Assembly: GCF_033153115.1 (NCBI RefSeq)
Contig: NW_026889779.1
Location: forward strand, 23,126,001 to 23,190,000
Length of the DNA: 64,000 nt
DNA from: Saccostrea echinata
Lineage: Eukaryota
Direction of reading: 5' to 3'
Shown in pieces: positions 10,601 to 49,100 of the stretch (position 1 is the first letter of the stretch; every line of letters begins with the position of its first letter). Under the pieces are notes generated by a model. It saw nothing but the letters and a program-made list of their open reading frames with translations, was not told the DNA's origin and made no database searches. Made by a program: the position numbers and the translations under genes.

Positions 10601-13600
10601 ATATTCAATCAAACATTACTTTGAGATAAAGATGGACATTTACAACAGATTCAATATTTTTCAGTAATATCCTACTTATCTATTTCCTGGATTCAGAAAG
10701 CATTTCGATAGCTAAATCACTAATATTATAAAAGCTTTGCATTGGTGTCCATAAACATAACTGATAATTTGTGCATGTTACTCAAGACAACAAACACATT
10801 AATTATTACTTTCAACAATATCAATTTCATTATGTCAGACTGAAATAAGTTGCTGTTTAACAATTGCACAAATTATGATGATTACAAATTTAAATTGTTA
10901 TTAGAAGTTTTTTTTTTCAATGTTGAAATAATAAACCTGGAAAAATATAAATGCGATTAAAAATTAATTTATATCATTGATGTTATGAGCAGTTTTAAGA
11001 ATGAAAACTGTTTAGCTGTGAGGAGGCACATGTTATCATTAGGAGTATAACAACAGGCTGATATACCGCAATATATGAAAAAATTGTACCATATCACAGT
11101 ACAAAAACTATATAGCTGTGAAAATGATTTAGAACATTTTAAGCATTTTATTCTATTTCTTTTCAATTAAACCTTCATTTAAATGACTTTCTTTATTCCC
11201 TTCTGCTGTTTTTATTGTGTTCAGGGCTCATTAAATGTTGCTTTATGTATTTCTGAACTGAAGAAATAATCCACAATTTTTATCTTTTCACATTGTGATA
11301 GAGAATTTCTCAACTCAAAACAGAGACACACAAATTATATAGAAAATTATGAAAGGTGAAATATTGTGATGTGTATCGATCGTGATACAGTTCCAGTGTA
11401 TCATGATATACCACGATTTGCCTTAGCCGTATTGTTACACTTATAATTAACACCTACAAATGAACAGTTTAATGCATGTTTTCTTAACGGTTAAAAACAA
11501 AAAGCTTAACTTGGATTGGATGTCCTTTCAAACATTACCATTAACTTTTGTAAGAAATGTTACATTTTGTTGTAAAAATTGACAGCCTGGGTGTGGAAAT
11601 CAAGTTTGGATTGTGAATCAAAACTTTACACCAAAATTTGGTTTACAGTGGTGGAAGGAAAGACAATTGTGGTTGTTTAATTGCCAAAGCCAATTTAAAA
11701 TCAGAACCTAGGTCTGTGCAAAGACATAAATCTTGTCCCAGTGAACAAGTGGAATTTCAAATTCAAATCTCATTCAAAATTTTATCCATCATAGCACACA
11801 GTGAACATATTTTGCATTAAGAATATTATGCATTAAATTTATAATTGAAAGAGCAAATTAAAACTTGAAAAGTAATTCTTATATACTTTCATAACAAAAT
11901 GTGAATCAAATAATTAAATAATGAAGACTTACAATTTGTGCCACTGTCCTCTTAAGTGGAAAGATTACAGTGAAAAATTACATTAAGTAACATAAATTAT
12001 ACCTTGCATAGTCTTGGTAAGAAGTTACTGATATTCTCTTTAAGATGAATTCAACGATGTGCTAATTCATGATACCGCTAATAAATCATTTATAAATACA
12101 ATATATGGCGCGATTGTGTGTAGCCCTAATTCATGAATACGCCAACAACTCAATACCCAGTGATTGCACAAAATTTTGAATACGCTAATTTATGTACACG
12201 TACAGTATTAACATACATGTAGTTCTGAATGCTTGGAAGCAAAATTCAAGTCCCAGAGACTTCTTTATAACCAAGTTGAACTATACTATTGTTTAAACAT
12301 TGGGATTATGATCTTTATGAGAAAAGCAGAGGAATGAAACAGATTTTTATGTACTTAAGTTTAATACATTGATCATGATTCTAACCATTACAGACAGCTA
12401 GTGTTACTAGATCAGTGATGACAGGAAGTCCATTCTTCTGTAGACATTCTTCCTCCAGGAGGGAATCAGCGAAAGCTCGTGGGTCATCACAGCAATTATC
12501 CTCCATCATCACCATGATCGACTCCGATGCCTGCTTAGACAGACATAGATGCTTCATGATCTGCTCTAGTGTCTTCTTCTTAAAAGAACTGAAAATTTAA
12601 ATTGCTATTATAATCATCAAAGCTTAGACACAAAATTCTAGATCTTTTATTAGATTCAATAATTCAGATATTTTGGGTACTTCACTTTGAAACAATTAAA
12701 AGAAAATCAAGTGAATTAAAGCATATTTTATTTATTACTGTACATTTGTTTTCAAAGAGCTAAGCTCACTTTATGCATAAAATGGCCCTGCCCTTATACC
12801 AATTACTGGTACCAGGTAATTGAATATCACCTTATCATGCTTATTTCCCATTTCAAACATCAGTATAAAGTAGAGACTTAGCTCTTTTATTTTCTATATC
12901 AAAAATTCCTTTCAGAGTTCAGGAATTGGAAAACAGGCTTTATAAAACAGCAGTCGTATTGAATTTAATTTGCAGAAAACAGATGTATTTGAGCATCTTC
13001 AGCAAAGAATTAAAATATGAGCACATGCATCCCTTGATCCAAAAAATAAAAAGATATTTCATAATCTTCTGAAACAGTTCTATCATTATATAATTTGCAT
13101 ACTTTGGATCAGGGGTTGTGCTTTATACAAAATATTGAAAATTCCCTTAAACTTTTGGCCATTTTTGAAGAAATTTTCAGGGTATGAGAATAATAACGCA
13201 ATTTATGACATCAAAATGTATCGACTAGCAAGAAAATTAAATCATTTTTAATAGATTGATGTGCAGTCTCCAAGAGTCCAAGTCATATTTAATGCAATGT
13301 CAACTAAAACTATATGAGTAGTTTTCAAATTAACAGAGCAAAAAAAAGGGGGGTCCTAAGTGAACCTTGCTCTTTGAAAAACTTCAGACAGTTTAATTTA
13401 GGAATGACTCTAATTATTGGCCAAATTATTGGAGTATAACCTGGTTTGGGTCGGTTTACACTTTATAATCCATGAAGCAGATTATAAAACAGCGTAAACT
13501 GACCCAAACCAGGTTATACTCCAATAATTTGGCCAAGAATTAGAGTCATTCCTTATAATTTAATTTTAAAATCATTAAATAACTATGGGTGTAAAATTTC

Positions 13601-14375
13601 GTTGCTTTATATTAGTTCAAATTTGCCGCTCAATAATACAACCATAGTTACGGAAGTAACGGAAGTGATGGGAAGCGAGGGGAGGTAAAAACTGATACAT
13701 AGGCCTAGAAGCCTTGTTGTTTGTTTACATGTGGTAAGATCGAATTATTGTTTGAAGTTAAAGGTACATTTATTAAATCTGGAATTTTCCATAAATCCCG
13801 AGGACTGGAAATGAGAGGATTGTATGGATACAAATGATTCAGCTGGTTGTCAGGGGGGGGGGGGGGGGGGGGGGGTCCCCATACCAAACCAGGTTATACA
13901 GAAATAATTTGTGTTCCTTTTGGGATATTAACCAATCAGAGGCTAGAATACAAACAAAATTAATTTATTTGCATATAGTCAGAGACTTTGGAAATTTCAA
14001 GTACATTTAGGTTAATAGCTTGCAGACTAACAATACATACATTATGTAAGAAGCATGTGTATACAAACATCCATCTTCCTTAGTCAAGGCTTCTGATCCA
14101 CTCCACATAAATATTAGAGCAGAGCGGATCGGAAATTCTTGACTTGGGACGATGACAATCATGATGCAAGTCTTGGAATTAAATACATATATCATTAATT
14201 CAATTGCTGAATTGAACATGTTTTATTGACAAGAAGTCAACAGGATTAGATACAAATTCAGTAACTTTAGGCAGTCTTCTAATACAGTTTGTAAAGCTGC
14301 CATATTAAATATATGTACATTTACATGATCTAGTTCTACAAATACATCAGTAGTGTCAAAAACTGAAATTCAATG

Positions 14376-14411
<36 letters not shown>

Positions 14412-16239
14412 CACATTGGCTAGGCAAAAGCACAAATCAGTTCAGTATTGAAAAGATTACCTGGGGGGGGGGGGGGGGGAGGGAGGGGGGCTTGAATTTT
14501 AAACTACCTGATGATGCTTCCATGTCAATATAACAAATGGCTTTGTTGTACTTGAGAAGATTTTAAAAAAATTTTCCCATATATTCCTTTGTAAAAATTT
14601 TATCCCCCATTGTGGTTCCTCCCTATCCCATGGGTCATCATTTGAACTTGAATCTACACTACCTGAGGATGCTTCCATATCAATATGACTAAACATAGCT
14701 TTCCTGTTCTTGAGAAGAAATATTTTTTCTATATGTTCTTATGTAAAACTTTCGATCCCCCAATGGGCCCCACCCAACCCCTGGGGGTCATGGTTTGAAC
14801 AAAATTTTATCTACACTACCTGAGGATGCTTCCATATCAAAATGACTAATCATGGTTTGCAGTTCTTCAGAAGAAGATATTTTCCTATATATTTATATTT
14901 AAGACTTTGATCCTCCATTGTGGCCCCATCCTACCCACGGGGGTCATGATTTGAACAAAATAGATTCTACACTACCTGAGGATGCTTCCACATAAATATG
15001 ATCAATCAGGGCTTTGCTGTTCCTGAGAAGAAGATTTTTAAAATTTTTCCTATACATTTCTATGTAAAACTTTGATCCTCCATTGTGGCCCCATCCTACC
15101 CCCGGGGGTCATGATCTGAATAAATCTGAATCTACCCTACCTGAGGATGCTTCCATATAAATATGAACAATCTGGGCTTTGCTGTTCCTGAGAAGAGGAT
15201 TTTTCCTATATATTTCTATGTAAAACTTTGATTCTCCATTGTGGTCCCACCCTACCCCCAGGGGTCATGATTTGAACAAACTTGAATCTACACTACCTGA
15301 GGATGCTTCCATATAAATATGACTCATCATGACTTTGCTGTTCTTGAGAAGAAGATTTTTAAAGATTTTTCCTATATATTTCTATGTAAAACTTTGATCC
15401 TCCATTGTGGCCCCATCCTACCCCTGGGGGTCATGATTTGAACAAAATAGAATCTACACTACCTGAGGATGCATCCATATCAATATGACTCATCGTGACT
15501 TTGTTGTTCCTGAGAAGAAGATTTTTAAAGATTTTTCCTATATATTTCTATGTAAAACTTTGATCCTCCATTGTGGCCACGCCCTACCCCCAGGGGTCAT
15601 GGTTTAAACAAAATAGAATCTACACTACCTGAGGATGCGTCCATATCAATATGACTCATCGTGACTTTGTTGTTCCTGAGAAGAAGATTTTTAAAGATTT
15701 TTCCTATATATTTCTATGTAAAACTTTGATCCTCCATTGTGGCCACGCCCTACCCCCAGGGGTCATGGTTTAAACAAAATAGAATCTACACTACCTGAGG
15801 ATGCTTCCATATAAATATGACTCATCGTGGCTTTGCTGTTCTTGAGAAGAAGATTTTTAAAGATTTTTCCTATACATTTCTATGTAAAACTTTGATCCTC
15901 CATTGTGGACATGCCCTACCCCCAGGGTCATGATTTGAACAAACTTGAATCTACACTATCTAAGGATGCTTCCATATAAATATGACTCATCATGACTTTG
16001 TTGTTCCTGAGAAGAAGATTTTTAAAGATTTTTCCTATATATTTCTATGTTAAACTTTGATCCTCCATTGTGGCCCCGCCCTACCCCCGGGGGTCATGAT
16101 TTGAACAAATTTGAATGTACACTACCTGAAGATGCTTCCACATGAGTTTCATCTTTCCTGGCCCTATGGTTTTTGAGAAGAAGATTTTTAAATGATGCAT
16201 TTATTTTTTCACTAATTCTTAATTATCTCCCCTTGAAAG

Positions 16240-17965: not shown

Positions 17966-18266
17966 AATCGCCTGCCGATAGTTGTTTCGCTTGGATAGCT
18001 ATGAATGGATCTTTTTTGCTTCTTATATATTGATATGCATGAGAAGAAAAGTTAATGACCAAACGACCCGGTTAGGAGTAGATAAGCTTCTAGTTGGCAG
18101 AACGGTACGAACTTGCGAACACTGTCAATGATTCACTGCAAAAGTAGATTACTACTGATTATACATGCACTTGGTGCTACCTTATTCAGTTATTGACAGA
18201 TCATTTGTGGGATTATAACAGAAATATAAGTCTGTCATTTGTTTAATTAATATATTAATTATTCAG
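17966..18266. promoter_or_regulatory. Probable bidirectional promoter / 5' UTR region shared by TMCO4 and OTUD3
   Basis: Only ~330 bp separate the tentative TMCO4 ATG exon (-) and the OTUD3 ATG (+, 18292). An acceptor-like attcag at 18261-18266 suggests a non-coding OTUD3 first exon within this interval. Confidence 0.55.
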
Positions 18267-18291
18267 GCAAGCTGACAACAATTTTACATTG

Positions 18292-21200
18292 ATGTCTGCT
18301 CGGAGAATTCAAAAACTTCGCAACTGTGATCCTAAAATGACGAGGATACAGCATAATAGATCTGATGCTGTGACAAGAAAGCGTGAGGAGAGGGCTGTTA
18401 GAGAACAATACAAGCGAGAGAGGAAGATAGAGTCTTACCTAGCTGATGATGAAAACTTTCCCAGCTTCTCAGCACAGCTTGGAAAACTTGGTCTTCAGCT
18501 TAGAGACATACCAGGAGATGGGTAGGTTTGGTTTATTTTGTGAATCATCTGTCAGTGTTATGTGAAGATGTTTTATATAAAAGTATTTTCACAATGTAAG
18601 TAATATAGATCTAATAGGTGTTACTGTCTTCACTAAACTCTACTTTAAAGCACATTTTAACTCTCAGATCTGATTGTCCAGTGAACGTAGAGAATTTACC
18701 AATTTTTTATCCCCTTTTCCTCCAACAGTTATATGTTGAGTTTTCATTATTGTTGATTTACTGCTTTGGGAGGCAGTGAAGCAATTAACTTATTACATAT
18801 TATTTGTGTGGTACAAACATCATGGCAGAGTATACTGTAGATCTATTCAATATTGATAAAAAAAATTGTTCCCATTTCTTGTTATATATTTGGCTGGAAG
18901 GTAAACTCGAGCTCTCTTTAATTTTCTATATCTCCATACTTGAATATTTACCATAATTATAAATACAGTTTAGGTTGTAGTGAATACTAGGTATATAACT
19001 TTTTATTGGACATGTAGTATGCAGAACTGTGGGAAATACATCAGGGTTACCTGTCTCAGGTGGGATAGTTAGACCTGGCATTCACCTGTAACAGCTGATC
19101 AATGAAATACCTGTAAAACAGGTTTTTAAAGAGACTGTTCAAGTGAAAAGAAACTGGCTTAAGAATACACAGAATTCTGATTCATAAATTCTAGTCCAAG
19201 GCATATATTTAATCTTAGAGGGAAAATCACCTTAAACTTTGATCAGTGTCTGTCTTTCCCTAATTCTGGACAAGACATTGCATAATTTTTAAAATGCTCG
19301 TTTTGTTTATTTGCTGTAGATGAGTAAATCCCATTGAAATCCAAACAATTGAAGGAATGTGTCCTAAATTTCTCAAAGCTGTTGAACTTAGATTTAAACC
19401 AGACAAAGTTATACAACAATTAGAAGAGGCATATACTTTTAAATATTCACATGACTGTGGGAAATACTTGCTGTTCTTTAACAACACATGTACATGTATA
19501 TATATATCGTGTGTTTTTGATATCTCTACACCTGACACATTTCTCTGCTTTTTCATCAATATCAGTTGCTGTTTGTCAATAGAAGTAATGGTGTTTAAAA
19601 CACTTAACAGTAATAGCCATGCTTGTAAATAACAACATGTAAGGTAATGTACCTGGTAGATACACAGACTATAACAGAGGTCAGTGTATGTCTGTATGAT
19701 GATATGCAGGATAGTTTTAATCATAACCAGCTTAGGAACACATTTCAATCCTCCCCAACAGAATTACCTGGTAAAGCATTAGGTATTTTTGATGAAATGT
19801 AAATGAGTTATTGTTATAAATGAGATTTTGATGCAAATCAGGTGCTGAGGTGCACCAACAGACAGCAGTCTTTATCATTTTTCCTTTGTTGAGGGGGGTT
19901 GGTAACTATTGTCTGCAATTTCACCTTCATCAGATGACATACATACATTTTATTATAAATAATCTGAAATTAATAGGGAAAATTGCTTTAAATTTTAGAA
20001 GACATTAGAAGATATAATATTAAATAAATGTATAAAGTAATTTTACTCTAAAAATTTTGTATGACTATAAACATGATAAATAATGAATACATGATATATG
20101 TGTATTATACATACATAGTCACATGAGTGATTCATGTATTAAATATGATTTGGTATCCTTAAATTTCATTGTTAATCTGTATCCATTTAAATAATGTTAC
20201 ACAGAGACTAAAGTAAAGGCCATGGTCTCCTGTGACAATGTGACATTTACAGCCATTCATGATTGAGTCTTTGTTGACATACCTGTACATTAATATCCTT
20301 AAGAACTTTGTTCAATTTTGAGAAGTAAGAAGAAATGTCAACAAAGATTTTCTGAATAAGAAAATTACATAGAGCAAACATCTCAATATCTACAGTAATC
20401 TAGGCAAAGTATATGCCTCTATAGAAATTGTAAAAGGGTCAATCTTTCATTGCTTTGTTGATTTTTCATTGGAAATAGAAAAAAAAAAGAAAACAAAGGA
20501 TACTTTCAAATATGAAAAAAACTAAGGTGGAATTTAATTAAAACATAAAATTCACAAGTATAAATTCATTTTACCAGGGGTGATGTCCCAGATTTATATA
20601 GCTAGTATTATTGTAGCAGTGAATATGTGGCTAATATAGACTTATACACTGACAATTAATAATGAATTCAACAATTTTGTATTGCTTATTGCCATATATA
20701 TTTCACATATTTAGTCCTTTATGCAGTGGATTAATAGCTCATAGGATTTTTCAACTCATTGTGTGTTTTTATCCCCTCACCAAGGCTTGGGGATAAAAAA
20801 ACACAACTTGTTGGATAAAAAATCATGTCCAACCACAAACCATGGGAGATTCTATATGCATCTATATTGGTACAAATAAGCTGGGAAGGGGGGGGGGGTG
20901 TTTACATAATTGTGATGTAACATGGATTAAAAAAGGTAAATCCAGAGTATAAAACAATGAACACCTGTGATGCCTTTTCTTAATGAAGCTCATTGTTCTT
21001 TGTAAAAACTTCGTTTTAGTAAATGTACTTATAGTCAATATAGAGAAAGAAAGGCTCATAAGTATTACAAACTTTTATGTCAACATGTTTTTATCAGAGG
21101 ATGACAGTACAATGGGCATAATCATGTATTAAGTGTTAAATGCTTAGTTAATACTTTACAAATCTACTTTATGGGGTTGTACCTATAGGTACTAATTATA

Positions 21201-24200
21201 AGCACATTACACACACAGTGAAATTCAGCCTGTCACAGATTGTCATAATATATACTCTTAGAGAGTCATTTAGAATTATTTTTCATTCTTTTATTTTTTC
21301 ATTCATTGCATCCTAATGGGTAAAGAGGATTCAAGTTTGTTCAGATACATGTAAATGATAAAATATGTAAATACAAATTTATGAAGGCTACACCGAGTCA
21401 ATTAAAATACATGAACTACTGCTATACATTGTATTCAAGTGGATTTAACAGCATATTAATTAACACTGTTCAAAGCTAGGGCTGGGCTACAGCAGGAGTC
21501 AAAATTAAATGAATTTTACACATTATGAAAAATCTTAAAATATTTAAAATTTTCTGTGGAATATGTACAGCTAGACTAAAGAAAATCTCTTGAAATTAAA
21601 TTTCAAACATTAATCATGATTAATTATCTTGCAGTTTGATATGGTTTGTCCTTAAAATCATGGAAACATTTTAAAATTGTCGAAATTAATTTAAAAGCAT
21701 CAAAATACATTCTTTCAAAAAAGAAATTTGAATATATTTTGTTTTAATTTGGGGCTCCATGAAAAGGTTTATTGAATATTTTGTTTTCCGAGATATAGAA
21801 ATGTGACCTAGGCAAGAGTTGTAAATGTGTCTCAGTAAGGGTTGTGGCACTTTGATCTTTTTCAGATAAATTAATGAATAGGCAATTCATGCTTTCAAGA
21901 TGTTCATAATAATAGAAATATAGAGGTTATCTTCTCATGATTATCACAAGCCTTTGGATCGCTTAAATCCAACTTGAATAAAAATTGGGGTTTATTTTTT
22001 TTAACACCATAATTTTTTAAAGCGATCTAAGGGCCTGTGATGATATTATAAAGATAGATGACAATTTTGTCACACTTAATTTATTTTTTCCTTGTGACTA
22101 ATTAGATTTTTTCTTTTTAGGAATTGTCTGTTTCGTGCCCTCGGAGACCAGATGGAGGGACATGGTCGTAATCACTTTAAGTATAGGTTTGATGTGGTGA
22201 CATACATGTCTGATAATCGAGCAGACTTTGAACCATTTGTGGAAGATGATGTACCTTTTGATAAACACTGTAAGAACTCAGTAATATCTGTGATTGATAC
22301 AAATTTTATGTATATTTTTATGCATAATCATGAAGAGACTTGTATCCTTTTTTAAAATGGCAAGAAAAATAATGCATGTACTTTGAATATTTGTTACAGT
22401 ATCTAATCTATGTAAACTTGGAACCTATGCAGGGAATGATGCTATTGTGGCATTTGCTCGACTCCACTATGTCAACGTTGTTATTCATCAGCTGAATGCC
22501 CCATTCCTATTGGTAAGTTATGAATAACTAATAAACTTAATGTCGCATTCCTATTGGTAAATTAGGAATAACTAATCAACTTAATGTCCCATTCCTATTG
22601 GTAAGTTATGAATAACTAATCAACCTAATGTCCCAGTCCATTTTTTTCCCCAATACATTATATGGTCCCTAAAATTAAATATATTAAAAAAATTCTGTCA
22701 CATATATTTCAAAATTCATGTTTATTCCATGCAAAAATGACAATAAAGTATAAGTGAATGCAAGAGTAAGTAAATCAAGTCGTCCCTCAGTGCTACAAAC
22801 AAAACTGCTCCTAGGCATGAAGAAAAATATGATTATAAATATTATCTTCACTTGTAGATTCAGGGTAACCAGAGCAGCACAGGCCAAATCAAACAGATTC
22901 ACATTGCCTACCACAATGGAGACCATTACTCTAGTGTCAGGAGAGTTCATGACAACACTGAGTCCCCTGCCAGTATCAAGATCAAGGTAACATATCGAAG
23001 TCAAGGTCATCTGTGAAAAAAAGTCCCCTGCCAGTACATTATCAAGATCAAGGTAATGCATTAAAGTCAAGGTCATTCATTACAATACTGAGTCTTTTGC
23101 TAGTATCAAGGTAATGCATCAAAGTCAAGGTCATCCATAACAACACTGAGTCTTCTGCTAGTATCAAGATCAAGGTAATCAGTCTGTGAAATTTTACCCT
23201 AGCCCTTGTACCAAAGATAAGGTCATGATGACAATCTCGGTCCTGTGCCAGTCTCAAGGTCAAGATAATCAGTTAATGACATTTGACCAAGTCCACTATA
23301 TCAAGGTCAAGGTCAGCCATGACAATACTGAATCCCCTGCCAATGTCACTGAAACCAGGCAGAATCACAGTGTCAAAATACATGTAATCAAATGAATAAA
23401 AATAACAAGTTTTCCACCAAAAGTTTTTCTTCACTTTCAGTCAGGTAGATGCTGTTGACTTGGATGTGGTCAGATTAATCATGGTTCATTCATATATTTT
23501 ACTTTTGTGTAACAGATAGGGGAGGAGTCTGAGAGTAAGAGTAAAGTAATGAATGGTCATGTGACAGGAGGTGTGGTCTCAGCTGTCCGTGATGAACAGA
23601 GCATTGAGGAGGAGGTCATGCTGGCCACCAGCTGTATGGTATGTGTTACAAAAACATGCCCACAAGTTATCTTAGTATATAAATTGGTGTCCTCTGAAGC
23701 ATTGAATATCATTTTGTTGATGTTGCTGTCAGTAACTTAGGTTAAAGTTTTGGATCAGTTCCATTTCCAAATAATTGTGAATCCCAGGAAGTTAAGCTAA
23801 TATGAATCATAATGCATCTAATGATGTATACTTTTACATAATATTAGGTTTGTTACTGTCTATGGAACAATCTCAGAGATGATGAGATGAAGCCGAGTGA
23901 TCTTTGAGATTGATCAGTTGATATTTCTGTAGACAGTCAGTAACAAACCTAATCAACAATTTAATTTCTTGAGGATTGGAATATGAGAAATATTTTCATA
24001 ATAGGATATAAATTCTCACTTGCCTGGCACACATATATAGCCAAAAATCACGTGTGAGGTTTAATGAAAGTGCAACATTCTAGTCTGAGAGATTAAAAGT
24101 AACTATAAGCCCTACCTTAATAAAAATTGCAAGTATGTTGCATTTAGTGATGCAAGCTGCATCTTTCTTCAGTTACTTTATATTTTTTTACCTAATGATA

Positions 24201-27200
24201 TGTATGTAAAACACTGATATGATGAAATTTTTCATTGCTTCTTAATAAAAAATTATTTGACTTGAGATGTTGCCTTTCCTGATGATAACATATGTTGAAG
24301 TGAACCAAATCAATTTTGATTATTAGGGCCCCGCTCTGCGGGCACCCTATAGTGATCAGTCTGTCCGTCCATCCGTCCAACTGTCCGTCTGTCCGTCCGA
24401 GATCTCTTGTTCGGAGCATATCTTCTCTCTCCTTGGCCCAATCGGGCTCATACTTCACCCACAGAGTGTCTTTGGATAAAGGGTGTGCAGTGATTTTGAA
24501 CCATGTTTCTAGGTCTAAGGTTAAGGTCATAGCAGAATTATATGAAAAATCCTTGTCCAGAGCATATCTTCTCTCCTCTTGGTCCAATGTGGCTCATACT
24601 TCACTCACAGAGTGCCACTGGTCAATGGATGTGCAGTGACATTGAAGGGTTTCTAGGTCAAGGGTCAAGGTCAAAAATAGCCTCTCTGTTTAAATTCTTG
24701 TTCTGAGCATATTTTCTCTCTCCTTGGCCCAATCTGGCTCATACTTCACCCACAGAGTGTCTTTGGGTAAAGGGTGTGCAGTGACCTTGAACCATGTTTT
24801 TAGGTCTAAGGTTAAGGTCATAGCAGAATTATATGAAAAATCCTTGTCTGGAGCATATCTTCTCTCCCCTAGGTCCAATGTGGCTCATACTTCAATCACA
24901 GAGTGCCACTGGTCAATGGATGTGCAGTGACCTTGAACAAAGTTTCTAGGTCAAGGATCAAGGTCAAAAATAGCCTTTCTGTTTAAAATCTTTGTTTGGT
25001 GCATAATTTTTTTCTCTTAAGTCCAGTCAGCCTCAACTTTACCAATTGACTTAGGTTACTTAACATTTGTAATATTCCTTCCATATTTTGATAGAGGATA
25101 TGCAACAATTTTCATAGAGGATATTTTTGTGCTTTTGTTTGATAGAGGGTATGGAGCACTCGTGATTTTCGTGCCATTTTTTATTATAACAAGGATGACA
25201 TAGAATCCCTTTAGACTCAAACAGCACATCCCTTAATAGTACACAAATGTTCCTCTTCAAAATAAACCCTTTTCAGCTACCCTTACATTTTCATGTTCGT
25301 TGCTGAAAGCGGGGCCCTTTGAGATGGCCACCATCTCAATGATATCTAGTCTACATATATTTTCTTTGAGTTATATTTATAATTTAAGAATTCTGTTCAT
25401 GTACATGTACTTATTTTAGTGTGATCAAAATTTTGCGTTAATGTAGTTCTTGCACTGATTTGAACCATCATAAAATCCTTATTTGGTTATGATACGCTAT
25501 AGTAGTATGAGTCCATTCTAGACAAGGGTTCCAGAATCAACATTATGACACATTCTTTAGTAGATACGAGTGGTTTAATGACTGATGTACACATTTTAGG
25601 ACATAGAGCAAATTCGTGAAGTTCTAGTGGACTGTGGGTATGATGTTGAACTTGCTATTGCCACATTATTGCAGATCATGGAAGTCAGCGAGAATGGTAG
25701 GTCTAGAAAAATTCAAAAAATAAATTTTCACATTTAATCTGTAGTTTTTTTGAACGAATAAACTTTTAGGGAATAAATATTCTAAAGAATTTAAGATGTG
25801 ATTTGAGAAACAGACTGGGCATTCAAGATATAAATGAATCAAAGGGACAGAAATGCATAAGTTTTTTCCATATTACATGTAGTAAGGTAACACTTCAGAA
25901 TTGCAGAGTACAGTACATTTCATTTTTTTTCCAGGTCATGAGGAAACTGCCTCTCTAGCTTCTCAGATGACCTCCACAGACAGTGGGGTGTGGTCTGAAG
26001 CCTCACGGTCCTCTGGGGATTACGCCTCCCCCCAAACTGGGGCCACCCATGTACGAGAAAATAGTTATGGTGGAAGCTCAGGTTATGGATCACTTAGCAG
26101 CTTTCCAGGTGGAGCTAGGCCTAAACAAACTCAGGTATACTGTTAACTCTAAGTTAGCTAGACATAACAGACACAGGTAGAGAGGTTAACTAGACCTAAA
26201 CAGACTCAGGTATACTGTTAACTCTAGATTTGCTAGACCTAAACAGACTTAGGTATACTGTTAACTCTAAGTAAGCTAGACATAACAGACACAGGTAGAG
26301 AGGTTAGTTAGACCTAAACAGACTCAGGTATGCAGTTAACTCTAAGTTAGCTAAACATAACAGACACAATTAGAGAGGTTAGCTAGACCTATACAGACTC
26401 AGAAATAGGGTTCACTTCAATTAAGTTAACTAGACCTAAACAGACTCTGATATAGGTAGGGTTCACTTCAGTTATGTTTTTTGCAATGATATAGGGTTCA
26501 CTCCAATTAAGTTAGCTATACCTAAACAGTTCAACCCAATTCATGTAGCCATGTAGATATAAGTTCTCTTACATTAAGTTAGCTATACCTAAACAGACTC
26601 AGGTATTGAAATGGACTGAATTAAGTCAGCTAGACCTAAATAGATTCAAGAGATTAGTTAAACATCAAATTTGTTCAATCCAGTTAGCAAGATATGATAG
26701 ATCTAGGTCAAGAGTTTATTAATATTAAGCACAGACACTTGATGTTATAATTTTTCCTATCATAAAAAAATTATATTTGCAAATGTTTTCTCTTAAATAA
26801 ACTATTTAAGCAATGCATATCTATCACTGTATTAATAGGTCCTTAAATCATAAATGTTCGACATAAACATTGACGTTTTAATATGTTGAACATTTATGTT
26901 CACATTCGACATGATCCGTTAAACATGTGTCAACAAAGGGTTGATGCATGTTCAACAGATCAAATGCTGTTGAGTTTTGAGAAATAATACATTTCATGAG
27001 TTAAAGGTTATAATTAAGCAAATATAATTATAATATGGCCACAAATATATATATATAAGTAATAAAGTATTACTTTTAAACATCTATAAGGATATAGATA
27101 CAGGTTAGTAAATGATCATGTCTTTGATCACGTGACCAACCCGTACCTATATCCAGATAGATGTTTAAAAGAGATGCCTTATTTCTTAAATAACTCCCTA

Positions 27201-27598
27201 CCTTATTCCTAAACAGCCTCAGGTACTGGCTAATATCATGTAGGGGTTTATATTTTTTTGTGATAAGAAAAATATATAATGTCAAGTGCCAGTGATAAAA
27301 GTTAGCAAGTACCAAACATTCTCTGGGAATAATTTACTTTAATTAAGTTAGTTAGACAGAATGAAAAGTTCATTCCAATTTTCTTATGACCTACTTCTTA
27401 ATTTGAATATGGTTTATTTTACAGATCAAACCTCAATCAGCAAAGGAGAAGAGAGAGAATAAAAAGCTGGAGAAGAAGAAACGAGCCGAGGAGAGACATA
27501 AGATGAGGATTCAGGGGAATTCCCCACAAGTTCCCACAATGTATGATGATAACGCGGTTACCGTGGTCTCCAAGGACATTGGCATGATGAAAATCTAA
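18292..27598 (+). CDS. OTUD3: OTU domain-containing deubiquitinase 3, ~404 aa, 8 coding exons
   Basis: Exons 18292-18521, 22121-22269, 22400-22512, 22858-22986, 23516-23638, 25600-25696, 25935-26134, 27425-27598. All GT-AG and phase-consistent (1215 nt). Cys box [37 protein letters not shown], His box [17 protein letters not shown]-like [20 protein letters not shown], basic C-terminal [14 protein letters not shown]. Confidence 0.94.
22490..22635 (+). repeat. 44-bp tandem repeat (~3 copies) spanning the donor of OTUD3 exon 22400-22512
   Basis: cattcctattg|gtaa occurs at 22502, 22546 and 22590. Confidence 0.9.
22948..23345 (+). repeat. Degenerate ~60-bp tandem repeat (~6 copies) spanning the donor of OTUD3 exon 22858-22986
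   Basis: Recurring cat(g/t)acaa(c/t)actgagtc…tgc(c/t)agtatcaag(atcaag)gtaa…aagtcaaggtca. The first copy is the exon end [13 protein letters not shown]|gtaac. Confidence 0.82.
24322..25350 (-). mobile_element. Non-autonomous Helentron-type element (second HINE family)
   Basis: Subterminal inverted repeat AGGGCCCCGCT (~24325) / AGCGGGGCCCT (~25308), (GTCC)n microsatellite at 24360-24400, two ~300-bp direct repeats (24410-24700 and 24700-25000) and terminal hairpin gagatggccaccatctc. Confidence 0.75.
26113..26660 (+). repeat. Degenerate ~33-42-bp tandem repeat spanning the donor of OTUD3 exon 25935-26134
   Basis: Recurring gctagac(c/a)taa(a)cagac(t/a)caggta. The first copy is the exon end GARPKQTQ|gtatac. 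Confidence 0.85.
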
Positions 27599-30326: not shown

Positions 30327-31703
30327 TCAGAAGAGGTTCGTTTGGAGCATTATACGGATGAATTCTGATTGGTCGACTCGACCATCTCCATTTATATCTG
30401 CCTCTTCTATCATTTCTTCTAGCTCCTTCTGTGTGAATTTTATACCAGCATCTTCACATGCCATTTTCAAATTGTCTAATGATATTGCCCCCGATTTATC
30501 TGAAATAAAAAAAAAAATGCTGTGTGATCTTCATAGTGAGAATAATATAGTTTTTTTCCCTTTGGATTGAGTGAAGTGTTTTAATTTAAAACACTTGTAC
30601 AGAAATTTCAACTGCGATAGGAAAAAAATAATTGAATGAGAAAGTGAGTTTCAAGTTTATGATTTTTATTATGTTTGATAGTATTACTTCTATATTAACC
30701 CGTTTTAAAACCTGTCTATCTTCTGAGGGGCAGATGAAATTTAATCTTTACAAGGTGTCACTTGTATATATTTAAATTAACTTCATAATAATGAACTGAC
30801 CATAGTCAAACATGCTGAATCCCTTGAGGATTTCATCATACATATCTCGAGAATCTCCTTGTCTATCAATGATCACCTCCAGAAATTCAGTGAACTCAAT
30901 TTGACTGGAAAAAAAAAAACCGGACGAATGTAAAAATGATTTTCTATCATAAACATGTTCAAGGTAATTTAGAAGGGAATGAAAGGGACTAACCTCCTGC
31001 CTTTTAAATTGACATCTACAATCATTTGCTTGGCATCATCTCTGCTACACTTAAACCCTAGGGCTCTCATTGCTCTTCTAAGTTCAGCAGAGTTTATGTA
31101 CCTGAAATAATTTCATGATATCTTTTACCTATAACCACCAGTAAACATTACAAGATAAAACTGTCTGAACAAAATCAGTTTCTTACCCATCATTATTTGT
31201 ATCAAACAACTCGAACACAACCAGAAGATCTCTTATCTCTTGAGCTGTAAGGTGTTTAAGGATTCTGTTAGACATTTTGTATCCATGGACTTCCTTTTCA
31301 TCCACAGGATTTGAGGTCAACAATTTAACAAGCTGAAAATATTGGGGGAAAAGTAAACTTCCCGTTAAATCAATATTTTGCTAACATTGTACAGCACAAG
31401 TCTTTATTATTTTATAAGAAAGTGTTTCATGTTTTTGTATAACTACACGTAATACAAATCTTAATCATTGAGTACAGTATAAAATATTGTTCCAGTAAAG
31501 GCCAATTTCCATATACAATTTTGTTGAGTCTTTAAGTATGGACATTACCTTTAGAAGATACTTACACTTTCTCCTGGTTTAGGGGGAGGAGGAACAAAAG
31601 CAGGTGCGATTGGATCTGACGGGGAGTTATTCTCCTTTAGAGATTTACTGCCGCTCTTCTTACTCTTGCTCTTTTTTGACTTCCCCTTCTTTTTACCCGG
31701 CAT
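30327..31703 (-). CDS. Centrin/caltractin-like four-EF-hand calcium-binding protein, ~222 aa, 5 exons
   Basis: Exons 31566-31703, 31187-31332, 30994-31101, 30801-30904, 30327-30499 (669 nt, phase-consistent). FELFDTNNDGYINSAELRRAMRALGF, IEFTEFL, FSMFDYDKSGAISLDNLK, ELEEMIEEADINGDGRVDQSEFIRIMLQTNLF*. The AMRALGF segment and TNLF C-terminus are centrin-like. Confidence 0.88.
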
Positions 31704-32877
31704 TATTGTTATCAAATGTAAGACACTAAAAATTGATGTTTGTTTACAACAAGCACCTGTTGTACGCCATTTTGACGCTACCTGTGTTGCCCCCTGACGT
31801 AACAATTTTCTTTATCACTGATTGGTTTAACTTTTGAATATAAATTTAAAATCAACCTTATGTATCACGTTTTTCCGGATTATCTTCAAAAAGTTTTTCT
31901 CTTTCATTTTAAGCTCACCTGTATAAGGCACCGTTTTTGGTACTTTCTAGGTATTCCATGAAATCAAATAGGGATTTTTTTCAATCAAGAATTCATTTTT
32001 TGATATTGAAAAATGAATGAATGAATGAAAAAATAAATAAATAAATAAATAATCACAGAAAATAACTTGAAAGAGAATTTCGTGATATCAATTTTTTTTT
32101 CTTATTTTCCGATATCAGAAAACCATTTTTTGAACATCCAATATTCAATTTTCTGATAAAATAAATCATTTTAAGATAACAGAAATTCACCTTTAAAAAA
32201 AAAAAAATTAAAAATTCGAATTTCAACCAATAATGCCTTTAAGATTTATGAAAATTATCAATTTATCTCCTGACCTCGCACTTGTTGCATTAAAGAAAAT
32301 TAACATAATAAATTTTTGCTATTTTCGGGTGTTCATTGTCTAGTATTTACATATATTAGAAATATTAAAAAAAAGACGGTTACCAGTGTCGTAGTTGCCA
32401 TGGCCTCGAATTTATTTATGTTTATTTAACTTGTATTTTCCCGCTATTTCACGTATATCTTGTATATTGTCTTTGTTTGTATATATTGTATATAGAACCT
32501 CATTTGAGTGAATAAATTGAACTTGAATTTTATAAGAGAGATGGACATAGATTTTTTTTAAATACATGTATCTGAATTTAGGCTTTCATAGGAAAAAAAA
32601 GAATCTTCTCAGGAACAGCAAAGCCATGATTGTAGTTATATTTATATGGAATCAAAAAGAGACCCTACTGAATGCGGTAAAGGTTAATGAATTTCAGTTT
32701 ACAACATAATTTTCTTTGTCTTTCGGAAGTATGGATATCCTTATAAAAGTGATCATGAATTTCTTTGTGCTCCTATTTTAATATTTCTTCACTTAAGGCA
32801 GTTATGATAGTTTAAGAGTTTTTGTAAAATGTGCTTTATGAATAATTTTTTTTTTTTATTTTTTATTACAATGTATG

Positions 32878-33944: not shown

Positions 33945-36900
33945 TTAGTGACGCTGTAATAAAGTTTTCCCTGAAAAAAAATTAAAATAGGTATCAAACT
34001 AATAATGTATCAATCTGGACTTAAGATAAGGACGCAATTATTAGATTGTATACACTAGTAGAAGAAATCAATATTTAGAAACCCATCTTTCACTTTTGTG
34101 TGTGTGTAAAAGGGGGGGGGGGGTGTCGAGATCTACCACTGTGTGAAAAATTCATTGTACTCTTATGTGATAATTATTAAAAAAAAATAATGACTAACGT
34201 AAATAATTGAAAAATTGCAAAGAAAGAAGAAAATGCCAAAATCATTGATTATTTGATCCGCCCTTCTGATTCTCCTCAAACACTTACCGGCGTTTCTCTC
34301 CAGGGTACCCTCTGATTCTGGTGTGGAAGCTCGGGAGGAGTCAGATATCTCCGACTGAAATCCCTCCCTACGCAACAACCAATACGTCCTCACGGTGCCT
34401 TTGAAAGCATGAAGGAGGTCACGATCATTCTGATTAATATAACGATATTTTTTCTTTAGTATTTGTTCCCCATTTTTCTGAAAACATGCGTCTTTTTTCA
34501 TGCAATTTTACGATATCATCGGTTTGTCCCCATGTATAAGTTCTAATGCCCCAAGACCGTAAACTGAGAACAGACTTAGGTCAAAATTTAGATTTAGAAT
34601 ATCTTGATTTTAATTTAAAAACCATGGTTGTAAAGGTGCAGTTTGTAAAATATCCAAATACAAACATTCAATTTAAATTGGTTTTATTTCCTTATTATTT
34701 AACTGTTCTCAATCTATGGTCTTGCAGGGTTTGGAGGTATCAGTATCTTTTTGGTTAATGAAATTACATTTATCTGAAGCGGGGGGTGGGTGGGGGGATT
34801 TAAATACAAATAAAATTCAGTATCAGAGTACCTTAATGTTGTCCTTGCGTTCTTCTATGACAAAACCTCCCAAACCATCTAAGAGTTCGAAGGTCGTCTC
34901 ACTAATATGGATTCGATTGGCTGAAACATATCATTAATAAAGCACCAAGGACCTTGTAATAAAAAGTTCTGAAAGTTTTACTTCATGATCAACAATCTTT
35001 ACCTTTTCCAAGTGACTCCATCTTAGAAGCAAGGCTCACCGTCTCACCAAACAGACAATATCTCGGCATCTTTGACCCAACCACTCCAGCTACTACGGGA
35101 CCTGGAAAACAAATAGCAGCAGTGTTCTAATACTAGTATCTAAAAGTCAGTCTGACAAGAACTAACTAATGAAAGCTCAGACTATTGATGACAATCTAAA
35201 TTTGGACTGTTTTCAATTTGAATTAAACTTATTTTTAAAAGAGACGCACCAGAGTGACAACCGGTCCTGAGTCTGAACTTGGTCCCAGGAAGATGAGGTA
35301 TCTCAAGTCGGTTGATGTGTTCCAACAGATCTAGTGCCATGGTTGCGATCTCTGCAGCGTGACGCCGTCCATTCTGACGAGGTACTCCTGAATGGCATAA
35401 GAAAGCATACCAAATGCATTTACATGAGTATTGCACAACTATCGATATGTTTTACCACAAAGTATACCGGTATTGTTCAGTAACATCTATCTGCATGATT
35501 GATACTTGGAATTTCTACAACGTTCCTTACCCGACACCACCATGTAGGCATCACCAATGGTTTCCACTTTGTACACGTCATACATCTCGATCCGCTGGTC
35601 GAAACAAAGATATAAACTGTTCAGCATGTCCACGACCTGCAATGGGGAACTCTGAGAAGAAATCTGAGTGAATCCCACAATGTCGCTAAAGAAAATGGTG
35701 GACTCGCTAAATTGTTCCGCGTCAACAACTTCGTTCTGCTTTAGTCGCTCAGCTACAGACTTCGGCAACATTTGGTACAAAAGGGTGTCTGTTCGTTTCT
35801 TCTCTTTATTTAGCGCTTTTGTTCTGAAACAAATGAATAAGGATTTAAAGAAATATACTATCTAGTACCAATTCTTTGTTGAAGCGTCAAATAAACCAAA
35901 GAATACTAGTAGCCGTACAAACCGATTTGCAATTGAAATGGAATACGTCTGAATCTCTGAGGTCAGAGAATACACCGCGAACACGATCAATGGACATATA
36001 ATGAGAATTACTCCGAACACGATGCATATAGTAATCACGTTCCTCAGATCGTCATTGGAACTTTCTGATAGAAGCTGGTCTATTTTTGTTGCTAACTGTC
36101 TTTGAGTGGCCCTAAGAGCGTTCATATACACTGTCATGTTGTTGAACCACCATTTTGCACGCTCTACAGAACCACGTGACGACGAACTCCTATTCGAGCG
36201 AATCTCGTTCCTCATTTTCTGCATAGGTTCAATGATATTAGCGTTCCTCATCAACTGCGCCTCGTACATGTCATAAGCCAGTTCTGAATACAATCTGGAC
36301 GACTGGAAAGTGATGTTAGCGATATCTTGGCTTTCCACAAACAACAGATATTCGTCTCTTGTATTAAATCGACCAACGGCGTAAAAAGACACACCAAGTC
36401 CTCTCTCTCGTCCAAAGAACTCACTAGCCACGATAATTTCTTGATAGGCCACCAAGCTCTTCCACACTGATCCTGACTGAGTTTCAACAATTGCCTCATA
36501 CAACCACTGGATGAAGACTTCGATGCTGTCGGAGTAGAATTGCAGCTCCTCTTTGATGGTCCTGTTGTAAGAATCCAGCTGATAGCGATGTCTGTTGAGG
36601 TAGGAGAGGAACTTTTCTCGGGTTTGAAACTCGTCCCTGACGATATTGGCACTGGTTGGCCAGGAGGACAGGTTCTGAATGGCGATGTCGGTATCGGGGT
36701 ATCGCTGTAGGAGGAGGTCTTTGGTTTCCAGTTCTATATTACTCACGTACAAAGCGCTCATATCTCGTTCCCTCTGAATGTTACCGAGCAAAATACCCAA
36801 CTCAATGCTAAAAAGAACAAAGGGAAGGATGGTTAATATTTATTGGTGTCATAGCAATATGTAAAATACAAATATTTTGGTCTCAACAATTTTTCGCCGG

Positions 36901-37842
36901 GCGTCATTTTTTGTTATCTTTGTGGTTGGCAAAACCGTTCAACGAACTACATGATGGCAAATCTTTACTTATGATAGAATAGAATGATCGGAGTGAGTGT
37001 TGAGTGAGAGAATTCATGGAAATCACCACAGGTCGACAATTTGGCCGAAAGAATGTACCTAAAGTAGAGAATTCTCTGCTAATTTTGGAGGATACAATAT
37101 ATAGCTCTCCAGGGATAAAATATAGAATACCTAAAGTAGAGAATTCTGCTGATCTTGGAGGATACAATATAGTTCTCCAGGGATAAAATATAGAATACCT
37201 AAAGTAGAGAATTCTGCTGATTTTGGAGGATACAATATAGCTCTCCAGGGATACAATGAAGGTGTTGGCTGTCATCCCCGTGAGCACAATAACCGGAATC
37301 AGTACCACCGCCAACATCTTTACCATCTGCTGCCGCTTACCGGCGTCCGTGATCGGGTTACCTGGTGAAAGATTTAGTAAATTACTCCAGTATCAATATT
37401 CACTTAAATAATTATTATTGTATGTATTTATTTTAAAAATAAAGGTCTTAGTTAAAAATCGAAAATCATTTTAATTTATTTTTATCTGGATCTTTTAAAA
37501 TCGAAGTCCAGTATACAAAATAATCATTAATGGAGTATGCAAACAAGAATTTTAACATTTTTCCTTTCTGTACAGAAATAAATGAAAAAGTTGTTCGCAC
37601 TTTATTCTACAGATTATGCTACAAAGATGCAGTTGTTAATATTTTCCGGTCCTACCTCGACAAACCTCCTCGCACCTGTTCCAATTCTGTCCAAGGTTTA
37701 ACATATCCATAATGGCCAGATTCAACTGTGATTGAGTCAGGGACTCCATGGAGCTGGCCAATGAGGGTTCCTTCTTCCCATCCCCGGGGCGGACCCGACC
37801 CCCGCGCTTCAGCCACGTCATCTTAGAGCTTACCTCAGCCAT
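33945..37842 (-). CDS. Membrane NIT (nitrate/nitrite-sensing) domain guanylyl cyclase (NIT-GC), ~673 aa, 9 exons
   Basis: Exons 37656-37842, 37199-37361, 35923-36807, 35531-35823, 35250-35387, 35003-35101, 34832-34920, 34288-34429, 33945-33970 (last exon tentative). 2022 nt, phase-consistent. TM1 [22 protein letters not shown]; NIT-like motifs IQRERDMS and [10 protein letters not shown]; TM2 [23 protein letters not shown]; signalling helix [14 protein letters not shown]; cyclase [40 protein letters not shown]. No kinase-homology domain. Confidence 0.88.
37056..37253 (-). repeat. 68-72-bp tandem repeat (3 copies) spanning the donor of NIT-GC exon 37199-37361
   Basis: tacctaaagtagagaattct(ct)gct…ttggaggatacaatata…ctccagggata, with donor-equivalent AC at 37057, 37129 and 37197. 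Confidence 0.92.
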
Positions 37843-46100: not shown

Positions 46101-49100
46101 TTTAAGTATGGGAAATTTTTAAAAGATGTTTTTCAAAATTTGGATGATTCTTTCACCTCCTCGGACCAAGAGGTGTCACTTGGGAAGATCGGAATTAGTG
46201 GACCTGTTGCCGAGCAATACGTTATTATTCTGGGAATTTTGACAAAGGTTTGAAATCAGTTTTTGAACATTAAATATCTTTTCAATTGTCTAGGTAGCTT
46301 GCTGAATAGTACATTTATTGCATGAACTTCCTTTCTAGATGACAAGCAATCCACGACAAATGTGTGAGAAGTTCGTTAGTTTTCTGCGTCCAATACTTCA
46401 TCAAAAACATATGGAAAAGAGATGGACAGAACCTGAGTTCAAGCAACTTAGATATCTTGTTATTTGTGGCATAGCATTTGTAGCAAGAAAATGTATGTAT
46501 CATATATGCCAAATCAGCTCATTCCTTCATTAAATAATTGAATAACCCAATATATACCAAATGTAACAAATTGTACTAACTCTATTTTGTTGTAGTTTCT
46601 CAAATAGAAACAGGGCGTGTTCACAATATCAATCTTTGTGCACCTGATCAACAACTTGTCCCCGAAGAAATGTCTGACTTTCTGTTGTCCGTAAACACAA
46701 AAGTTGCACAACCAATTATTTCTTGCTTGAATCTGTCCGAGGGAACGATGATTCAGCTGGCCGAGTCCTATATTGGGAGAGCAATTCCGGGGCTGGTTGT
46801 TCATAACCAAGATCGTAGAAATCTCCCAAAATTGTCAGATCATTCTCACTGGATGGTATCCGGAGGTCGACTGTTTAAAAACTTGGTGCGTATAGCAATT
46901 AGAGTGCCAGGAATATCGGGTATTCAGATTCAAAATTGCAAGAATCCGATCGAAAGCAAACAATTACTGAATGAATTTGATGTAATAAAGACATTACAAG
47001 GAGACAAAATTCATGTGAATATTGTGAAAATGTTTGCATTCAACCCTAATCCCAGTCCAATACCATTTTACGTCATTGAAAGTTTTCAAACATTTCTTAT
47101 CGATAAACTTCTGCATGCAAGAAAACGCCAAGAGTTTCTTTCACAGGATTGGATGAACAACCGGTTTTTGGACATTGCAAGTGCCATCGATTTCCTTCAT
47201 CAGAAGAAAATTATACACAGGGATATAACCATAAACTCTTTTGCAATAAGGGAGTACCCGTCTAATGGTCACGAGAAAGCTGTTCTCTGTAGCCTTGAGA
47301 TGGCATGCTCAAACGACATCGAAGCATCAGCAAACACTGGACATATAGGGGGTCAGTAATAGGGAGCTCTATGAACTTTTTTTTTGATTTCGTAGATTTT
47401 CTTTTCGTTTAAAAAAGACAACAAGTACTATAATATTTTTAAGAACAAGAGACGTTAATTATGAGGTGTTATAAAAGTATCTCATTCTTTTAACCAGATA
47501 TTCATGGAGAGAACATTCCAACAAGATGGTCAGCTCCAGAATCACTATGGGATGATAAATACGATGTTTATACTGACATCTGGATGATCGGTCACGTGAT
47601 CCATACACTGTTCACTTACGGCTGTGAGCCATACACGGAGTTATACAGTGAAACAACTGACGATATCATGGCTAAGGTCGTTTCCTGTGGACTGAAACCG
47701 TACAAATGGCGATGTGTTCCTCTTCCTTACCATCAACTTGCCACCGAGTGTCTGCACTTTGACAGGAGAAAAAGAACACCAATAGATAAAATGTGTCAAC
47801 GGTTAAAAGAAATGAGAAAGAATCAAGAACATTTGCGGAAATCTTGTAAGCATGAAAGATATTTTATTGATCGTCTAAACATTAAATTTGGATAAGCAGA
47901 TTTCAAACTTTCGTTAGATAAATTTTCTATCAATGTGTAACAATTTTTCAATACGGTATTTCTCTATGCTTTTATAATCTGATTTTGATAAAACTTGCTA
48001 GTTTCCAAATGCTTCTTCGACAGTTTTGGTTCTATTTATGCCAAACCTGGTACATATGAGACTACATTAAGATACATAATTCTCTACAAAGAGTTGTGAT
48101 TTCGAAAAATGATATTTCTATGATAATAATCCTGAAAATTTCTATGAAAATTTTTCATATCGCTATTTCGCCTATACATTTGATCATATTAAAAGCAGGT
48201 CCGCGTCAACGGTTTCAAAAGGGGAGGGGGAGCAAAATTATCTGACAAGCAAATTTCATCTATCAGTTTTTAATTTTGACTGAGTTGTTATGATTACTAA
48301 AGGATTATGTGAAATTCTTTCAAAGCGATTCTCCTCTTACAGTTTGGTCCAATTTTTATAAAGTATAACACACACTTAGGTGATTCTAGGATGAAATGTG
48401 AAAATAACGATCAGAAATCATGCTCAAAAGTCCAAATGTAAAAAATAAAAATGAAGAGCAGTCTCCAAGGACTACGTAGATACTATTAGTGCAGAACTCT
48501 AGCATCTTTTTTTTTAAAGTGTAGGATCAGAATGACTTTTGGCACAATTTCAGAGAGTTTCATTTTTCTTGAAGCAGTAGTCAATGGTATTGTCATGTTG
48601 TAAATTTTGAATCTACCGGGTGGCAGTAAATACAAAATTTTCAATGTAAATTTTGTATTTACTGCCACACGGTAAATTCCAAATTTACAACATGACAGTA
48701 TCGAAAAGCCTTGTTTTTCATTTATCTTCTTGGAGAGTAGTTTTATAAAGTGTTGAAAAGTCAAAACATTTAGATATTATTGATTCGGCAAAATTTTGTA
48801 ATCTGAAAGTTTTCTAAAGTAGTTTTTTAAACTATATTATTAATATTATATTTGATTAACAGTCCACTTTTCGAATATGTTGTTGCACAATACTGCTGAA
48901 GTTTCTCCTTCATTGCTGTTAATATTTTTGTGAGGAGTAAAGGAAGAGGCTTTTTTTTTATTTAGATAAAATTGTATATCTGATGGTATTAGACGAACAA
49001 TGTTGCCTGTTGTTGGTTTATAGAAATTTCTATTAAATGCTTTCATAATGTTACTTTTCTGAAAGTTTTGACTCGTTTTCAATAAAACTTGCTTATTATC

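Follow-up and report, generated by a model that had tools for sequence, protein, structure and literature searches.

The NIT-GC gene and its domains

Analysis of a 64,000-nucleotide stretch of the Saccostrea echinata genome (contig NW_026889779.1, positions 23,126,001 to 23,190,000; the whole stretch is here called the window) revealed a gene for a membrane guanylyl cyclase (GC) with a NIT domain (NIT-GC) on the minus strand (33945..37842). The gene has nine coding exons for 673 amino acids and falls into a group of alpha-like NIT-GCs that we term clade A. Exons 1-3 (37842-37656, 37361-37199, 36807-35923), 4-6 (35823-35531, 35387-35250, 35101-35003) and 7-9 (34920-34832, 34429-34288, 33970-33945) keep an open frame and are separated by GT-AG introns. 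All eight predicted introns correspond to joints in a 2519-nt contig of run X1, which covers exons 1-8. The last ~45 bases of exon 2 together with the splice donor occur in three tandem repeats (units of ~68 bp) at the start of intron 2 (37036-37243, minus strand), and the X1 contig splices at the first of the repeated donors, at 37199.

The encoded protein carries a NIT sensor domain (PF08376, 36081..36785; Pfam E 3.6e-29 on the relative P0001) between two predicted transmembrane (TM) helices at residues 75-93 (37270..37326, hydropathy peak 2.2) and 374-392 (35982..36038, hydropathy peak 3.2). TM helix 2 is followed by a long helix (a coiled coil with an HNOBA tail matched by Pfam; 324-423 in an AlphaFold2 model) leading into a C-terminal class III cyclase domain of the receptor-GC type (PF00211, 34376..35723, exons 4-8; Pfam E 9.5e-59), which matches the GC-A cyclase domain 9bcv at a root-mean-square deviation of 1.8 Å in Foldseek. 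This order of TM helix, NIT, TM helix, coiled coil and cyclase, without a kinase-homology domain, is that of the NIT-GCs described by Moroz 2020 (PMC7400543), which are expanded in molluscs, and of Platynereis NIT-GC1/2. The soluble H-NOX/PAS layout was not found, as Pfam gave NIT, a short HNOBA tail and cyclase only and two TM helices are present. The NIT domain contains the arginines R131 (QxER motif) and R252 (GxER motif), conserved in 100% and 97% of clade A respectively, and these motifs suggest that the two are the putative ligand-binding arginines of Figure 7B in Moroz 2020. The nearest named relatives of the window protein are oyster proteins, among them P0001 (99% identical, from a 49-member cluster).

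Exon 6 (35003..35101) is the part of the gene in which a sequence-only reading of the window had noted the loss of two catalytic residues, with the caveat that these might be sequencing errors or private to one haplotype. Neither is the case. The X1 contig shows no differing letters over 35003-35099, a 167-nt contig of run X2 from a different study shows none over 35003-35087, and P0001 carries the identical Ser and Lys substitutions, which rules out a sequencing or assembly error as well as a private allele. The run search listed no matching run on record as RNA, and X1 and X2 are regarded as RNA by guess only; the joints of X1 fall at intron ends. A pseudogene is likewise ruled out by the open frame, the spliced contig and purifying selection. 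Compared with the loci L006 and L001 of the same genome, the clade A cyclase domain shows a nonsynonymous divergence (pN) of 0.12 with saturated synonymous divergence (pS), and for the pair L006/L007 the nonsynonymous rate (dN) is 0.007 against a synonymous rate (dS) of 0.39. The clade A cyclase domain is thus under strong purifying selection.

Active-site residues

Class III cyclases have an active site that is assembled from two subunits (PMC6005667, PMC2576301). The alpha or C1 side contributes two metal-binding Asp residues and an Arg, and the beta or C2 side contributes Glu, Cys, Asn, Arg and Lys (PMC6005667, Table 1). In the window protein the alpha side is complete: Asp459, the first metal ligand (FSDIVG, 35682..35684), Asp503, the second metal ligand, which lies with Gly502 and the guanine-specifying Glu499 in ETIGDAY (35550..35564), and Arg550, the phosphate-binding Arg of strand beta4 on the metal side (35266..35268; role from PMC6005667, Table 1) are all kept, as are Cys571 (35057-35055) and Glu584 in exon 6. 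That the metal Asp residues and the guanine-specifying Glu and Cys are intact was read correctly from the sequence at the outset. Other residues of exon 6 (99 nt, flanked by AG and GT, minus strand) have changed. The transition-state Asn is Ser578 (codon AGC, 35036-35034) and the catalytic Arg is Lys582 (codon AAG, 35024-35022), and both substitutions were recovered in the gene model, in an independent contig and in P0001. Two further changes had escaped the sequence-only reading: an Asp of exon 6 is Glu575, and a longer and variable loop takes the place of the KGKG motif of the beta7-beta8 loop (34394..34852, end of exon 7 and start of exon 8). A third partner-side residue, the Lys of the KGKG loop, is therefore probably gone as well, although one lysine, Lys628, persists in the new loop and is conserved in 46% of clade A.

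The window protein thus does not hold the eight catalytic residues in one chain that characterise homodimeric receptor GCs, and shows the alpha-type pattern instead, with metal Asps and beta4 Arg kept and Asn, Arg and Lys lost. A homodimer of the window protein is very probably inactive or nearly so; in adenylyl cyclase, mutation of the Asn lowers the kcat 30-100-fold (cited in PMC10553838). In our alignments GC-A and GC-C have Asn and Arg where the window protein has Ser578 and Lys582, and this Asn and Arg are also absent from the alpha-1 subunit of soluble guanylyl cyclase (sGC), which agrees with the parallel to sGC alpha drawn in the sequence-only reading. The cyclase domain of the window protein is nearer to GC-A (261 bits) and GC-C (219 bits) than to sGC alpha (185 bits), so the alpha-like state is convergent. 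Against the solved sGC subunits, P0001 scored higher with alpha-1 (185 against 150 bits) and a nemertean clade B protein higher with beta-1 (160 against 144 bits).

Conservation of the half-site in clade A

Gene models from this genome were pooled with database matches to give 231 rows, of which 188 were kept and 43 dropped for incomplete cover of the NIT or cyclase domain. Trees were built on the columns before the cyclase only. They place the window gene in clade A with a support of 99-100, together with proteins from bivalves, gastropods, a chiton, a nemertean and a brachiopod; a later tree also included Capitella and a partial Owenia protein. Counts for clade A refer to 35 rows that remained from 63 after de-duplication at 90%. 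A full metal side occurs in 33 of them (first Asp 33, Gly 34, second Asp 35, beta4 Arg 35), and Glu and Cys are conserved in 34. Asn is present in 12/35 and Arg in 4/35; at the Arg position 28/35 have Lys, scallops and a clam have Met or Ala, and Capitella has Gln. The KGKG loop occurs in none of the 31 rows that cover it, and Asn, Arg and Lys occur together in none of the 35. All columns lost by clade A lie within helix alpha4 or the beta7-beta8 hairpin, and eight of eight further clade A rows covering the site lack Asn or Arg. Conservation of the substitutions in orthologues, proposed earlier as a check, was accordingly found across the clade. The brachiopod and chiton genes retain Arg and have lost Asn and the Lys loop, so that intermediate steps are visible in living lineages. 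Taken together, the half-site is a genuine and ancient state that is under selection. One pearl-oyster model of this clade (P0011) has an HSP70 domain joined to the clade A protein, probably because two genes were merged by annotation.

Clade B paralogues as candidate partners

The genome of S. echinata yielded 16 NIT hits, five of them in clade A, seven in a second clade B (support 92-94) and four distant. Across clade B, counted on 40 of 49 rows, the pattern is complementary to that of clade A: Asn is kept in 33/40, Arg in 34/40 and KGKG in 28/38, and the set of Asp, Gly, Asp and Arg on the metal side occurs in only 1/40. The metal side has decayed in different ways. Nemertean clade B proteins have the first Asp replaced by Gly and motifs close to sGC beta-1, those of Lingula have the second Asp replaced by Glu, and in each of the 33 mollusc rows the Gly preceding the second Asp and the Glu that follows the catalytic Arg are gone. 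The same Gly and Glu are missing from the oyster's own adenylyl cyclase C2-type domain.

Among the oyster loci L002, L009, L010 and L011 retain Asn, Arg and KGKG, and L011 has Lys in place of the beta4 Arg. In L002, L009 and L010 the change of Gly to Asn and neighbouring changes suggest a defect on the metal side. This is favoured by a beta-like clade of echinoderms and hemichordates, in which six of seven rows show the same Gly to Asn change beside an outright replacement of Asp by Glu; in RhGC the backbone of the Gly reaches guanine through water. The sequence-only reading had envisaged a partner that keeps Asn and Arg and possibly lacks the Asps. A loss of Asp is indeed seen in nemerteans, the brachiopod and some clams, but not in the oyster genes L002, L009 and L010, which keep both.

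Two further clade B genes are near-identical, L004 (G000:C16:2.44 Mb) and L005 (G000:C54:33.88 Mb). Neither retains Glu, Cys, Asn, Arg or the KGKG loop, and they likely encode a dead cyclase; this gene type is conserved in another oyster (P0051). A pair of adenylyl cyclase domains is similarly present in duplicate, on C27 and C30. Of the distant NIT loci, L012 and L014 hold Asn and Arg, and L015 (G000:C28:2.58 Mb) and L016 (C29:8.23 Mb), next of kin to L014, have altered helix alpha4 motifs, with Thr at the catalytic Arg position in L016.

A partner gene beside the window gene was ruled out, as the window holds a single NIT hit and the next ones on the contig lie at distances of 10 and 17 Mb. 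In abalone, the locus ids of A, B and A genes on one contig follow each other directly, the gene order being taken from the ids. Pairing was also approached by complex prediction for the TM-NIT-TM parts of P0001 and P0069, with the cyclase excluded to prevent a pass through similarity to cyclase dimers of solved structure. The pair scored 0.60, the best of three controls scored 0.00, runs shared at least 51% of contacts and the predicted local distance difference test (pLDDT) of the partner was at least 68, which gives weak support. In the benchmark, 51 of 78 solved pairs and 2 of 108 mismatched ones attained the mark; at scores of 0.60 or less, however, there were only 5 of the 78 solved pairs but all four passing mismatches. 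Moreover, close cousins usually pass (10 of 12), so the prediction cannot tell a heterodimer from a homodimer and changes little. As for transcripts, spliced contigs of L002 were found in X6, from a related organism whose run also has the A gene, but these are bulk contigs and uninformative on co-expression. X1 holds one 160-nt piece of L002 at a depth of 2.4, and X2 and X5 hold no coding piece, blanks that carry no weight.

A possible A-B heterodimer and its alternatives

We consider the window protein likely to be an alpha-like subunit of a productive heterodimer with a clade B paralogue that makes cyclic GMP (cGMP), a reading that we put at roughly 60%. This two-pass membrane NIT-GC keeps the metal-binding half of the site and would be complemented by a clade B paralogue for the half with Asn, Arg and Lys. 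One complete site would then form from Asp459, Asp503 and Arg550 of the window protein and Glu, Cys, Asn, Arg and Lys of B. The second site, with the Asps of B and Glu499 and Cys571 of the window protein, would have no catalytic activity but might still hold GTP in a regulatory role; the retention of Glu and Cys in A and of the Asps in B would then be accounted for. The stimulus, assumed from the family, would be nitrate, nitrite or nitric oxide (NO) acting through the NIT domains.

Such a division of labour has precedents. Heterodimeric cyclases are established in sGC, DAF-11/ODR-1 (PMC5225109) and NeoR/RGC (PMC12264004), and complementation works in engineered RetGC1. A close parallel is the chytrid NeoR, which like the window protein is a membrane sensor cyclase: it has Thr and Lys in place of Asn and Arg, donates the metal Asps and is inactive alone, and its partner RGC1 keeps all residues, is active as an isolated domain and requires NeoR as a full protein; the second site of the pair is regulatory (PMC12264004). 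NeoR/RGC1-2 differ in being fungal, with a rhodopsin sensor and an unrelated origin, and in having been shown experimentally. The alpha and beta subunits of sGC (GC-1), the mammalian NO receptor, and the C1 and C2 domains of adenylyl cyclase show the same split of the eight catalytic residues as A and B. In sGC alpha, too, Glu and Cys persist in the dead site and Lys stands in place of the Arg, but sGC is soluble and has an H-NOX heme sensor. DAF-11/ODR-1 of C. elegans are animal membrane cyclases in which each subunit gives part of a single site, as proposed for A-B, but they are nematode-specific, single-pass proteins of the kinase-homology type without a NIT domain (PMC5225109). The half-site, alpha-like status in the sequence-only reading is therefore supported by clade-wide conservation, by the NeoR pattern and by a complementary paralogue clade in the same genome. 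Its further claim that the heterodimer is obligate goes beyond these data, in which three oyster candidate partners hold all eight textbook residues and the complex prediction is weak; nor do they single out one paralogue as the partner.

Several observations weigh against a productive A-B pair. Platynereis NIT-GC1, which may lie outside clade A, made cGMP when expressed alone in COS-7 cells. The role of the Gly to Asn change in B is deduced, and no mutant of this Gly was found in the literature. The chiton and Capitella have A and no B among the matches listed, no A gene adjoins a B gene in the S. echinata genome, and L004/L005 represent a dead-looking clade B gene. In clade A itself, 12 of 35 rows keep Asn, the exchange of Arg for Lys is conservative and Lys628 might partly stand in for the lost Lys.

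Other opposing observations fit an alternative in which B, or a complete NIT-GC such as L012 or L014, is an active homodimer that the window protein joins optionally as a regulatory or dominant-negative subunit, halving the number of sites and shifting the ligand response or cutting output. L002, L009 and L010 hold all eight textbook residues and the clade B protein P0130 of Owenia lacks none of them, so B may be active by itself, with A as an optional or inhibitory subunit. For Littorina and Lineus, B but no A is among the best 120 of 624 matches of the clade A profile search, and the RGC1 cyclase in isolation forms an active homodimer, the Vmax of which is halved by mixing with NeoR (PMC12264004). 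A purely inhibitory subunit, however, would have no need to retain both metal Asps and the beta4 Arg in 33-35 of 35 rows, and the metal side of B decays in several independent ways, so we regard this alternative as unlikely, at about one chance in five.

Less probable still is a slow but real homodimeric cyclase, in which Lys582 and Lys628 or the new loop would partly replace Arg and Lys. If Lys628 stands in, six of the eight textbook positions could be served; the preponderance of Lys in place of Arg suggests that a positive charge has been selected for, and Glu and Cys are nearly invariant. Yet NeoR shows no detectable activity with Thr and Lys at these positions (PMC12264004), sGC alpha-1 likewise has Lys there, and within clade A the Arg position also accommodates Met, Ala and Gln and fewer than half of the members have Lys628. 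A non-catalytic receptor, in which a pseudo-cyclase homodimer binds metal-GTP and passes on its signal through its conformation or as a scaffold, would account for the loss of turnover residues alone with all GTP- and metal-binding residues kept, but is improbable, as it leaves the mirror decay of clade B and the A-B-A gene ids of abalone unexplained.

Origin of alpha- and beta-like types

Clades A and B group together with a support of 83-87 in two trees. This sisterhood was left unstarred at that support and finds no resolution in a 92-row tree, a further point against the A-B reading. Echinoderms and hemichordates show a similar split into two sister clades (support 87-90). In the beta-like one, seven of seven rows lack the second Asp and the Gly, and among the ten rows of its sister three have Arg replaced by Lys (two sea urchins and a starfish), five are complete and two show other losses. 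A single origin of the alpha- and beta-like types of lophotrochozoans and deuterostomes was rejected by approximately unbiased (AU) tests (p 0.0065 and 0.0003), in which the groups were named after the tree was seen and the quick model LG+G4 was used. Among 71 scored rows outside A and B, 48 are complete, nine have lost only the beta side, nine only the alpha side and five both; these five of 23 degenerate rows show that plain decay also occurs, which again tempers the A-B interpretation. The sister proteins P0245 and P0198, the latter from a barnacle, have beta-like and alpha-like patterns and may represent a third split if they come from one species.

We tentatively propose, at somewhat less than even odds, that the NIT-GCs of marine invertebrates divided into alpha- and beta-like types on at least two occasions, one in lophotrochozoans (A and B) and another in echinoderms and hemichordates. 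They might act as combinatorial, obligately heterodimeric membrane receptors for nitrate or NO, with five A and four to five competent B loci in the present genome, each pair having a catalytic GTP site and a regulatory one. As candidate receptors for NO or nitrate, NIT-GCs form a class of recent discovery, of which one member has been assayed in the papers found, in Platynereis (NIT-GC1/2, bioRxiv 10.1101/2023.08.02.551600). If many molluscan NIT-GCs work only as mixed pairs, tests with single genes would wrongly score them as dead, and the gene lists given here indicate which A/B combinations to express together. The alpha/beta division would then also have one or two more independent origins among animal cyclases. 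In the accessible parts of Moroz 2020 and the Platynereis preprint neither the loss of catalytic residues nor dimers of NIT-GCs are treated (the word heterodimer does not occur in the preprint and occurs once, in an unrelated context, in Moroz 2020), and the accessible parts of PMC1435932 contain nothing on residue loss in receptor cyclases. A literature search, to which most subscription papers were out of reach, found no half-site or heterodimeric NIT-GC.

Other genes in the window

About 2 kb downstream of the cyclase gene and on the same strand lies a gene with EF-hands (30330-31811, minus strand; Pfam EF-hand_7), which we take to be centrin-like and which shows no sign of a connection with the cyclase. 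A DUF726 gene (1691-14738, minus strand), presumably TMCO4-like, and an OTU-domain gene (18259-27595, plus strand), presumably OTUD3-like, were also identified. On the other side of the cyclase gene a tyrosine-kinase-like gene (46580-57804, plus strand) has an unusual catalytic loop, lacks a DFG motif in the exon that was read and might be a pseudokinase; a second kinase-like exon is located near 52304.
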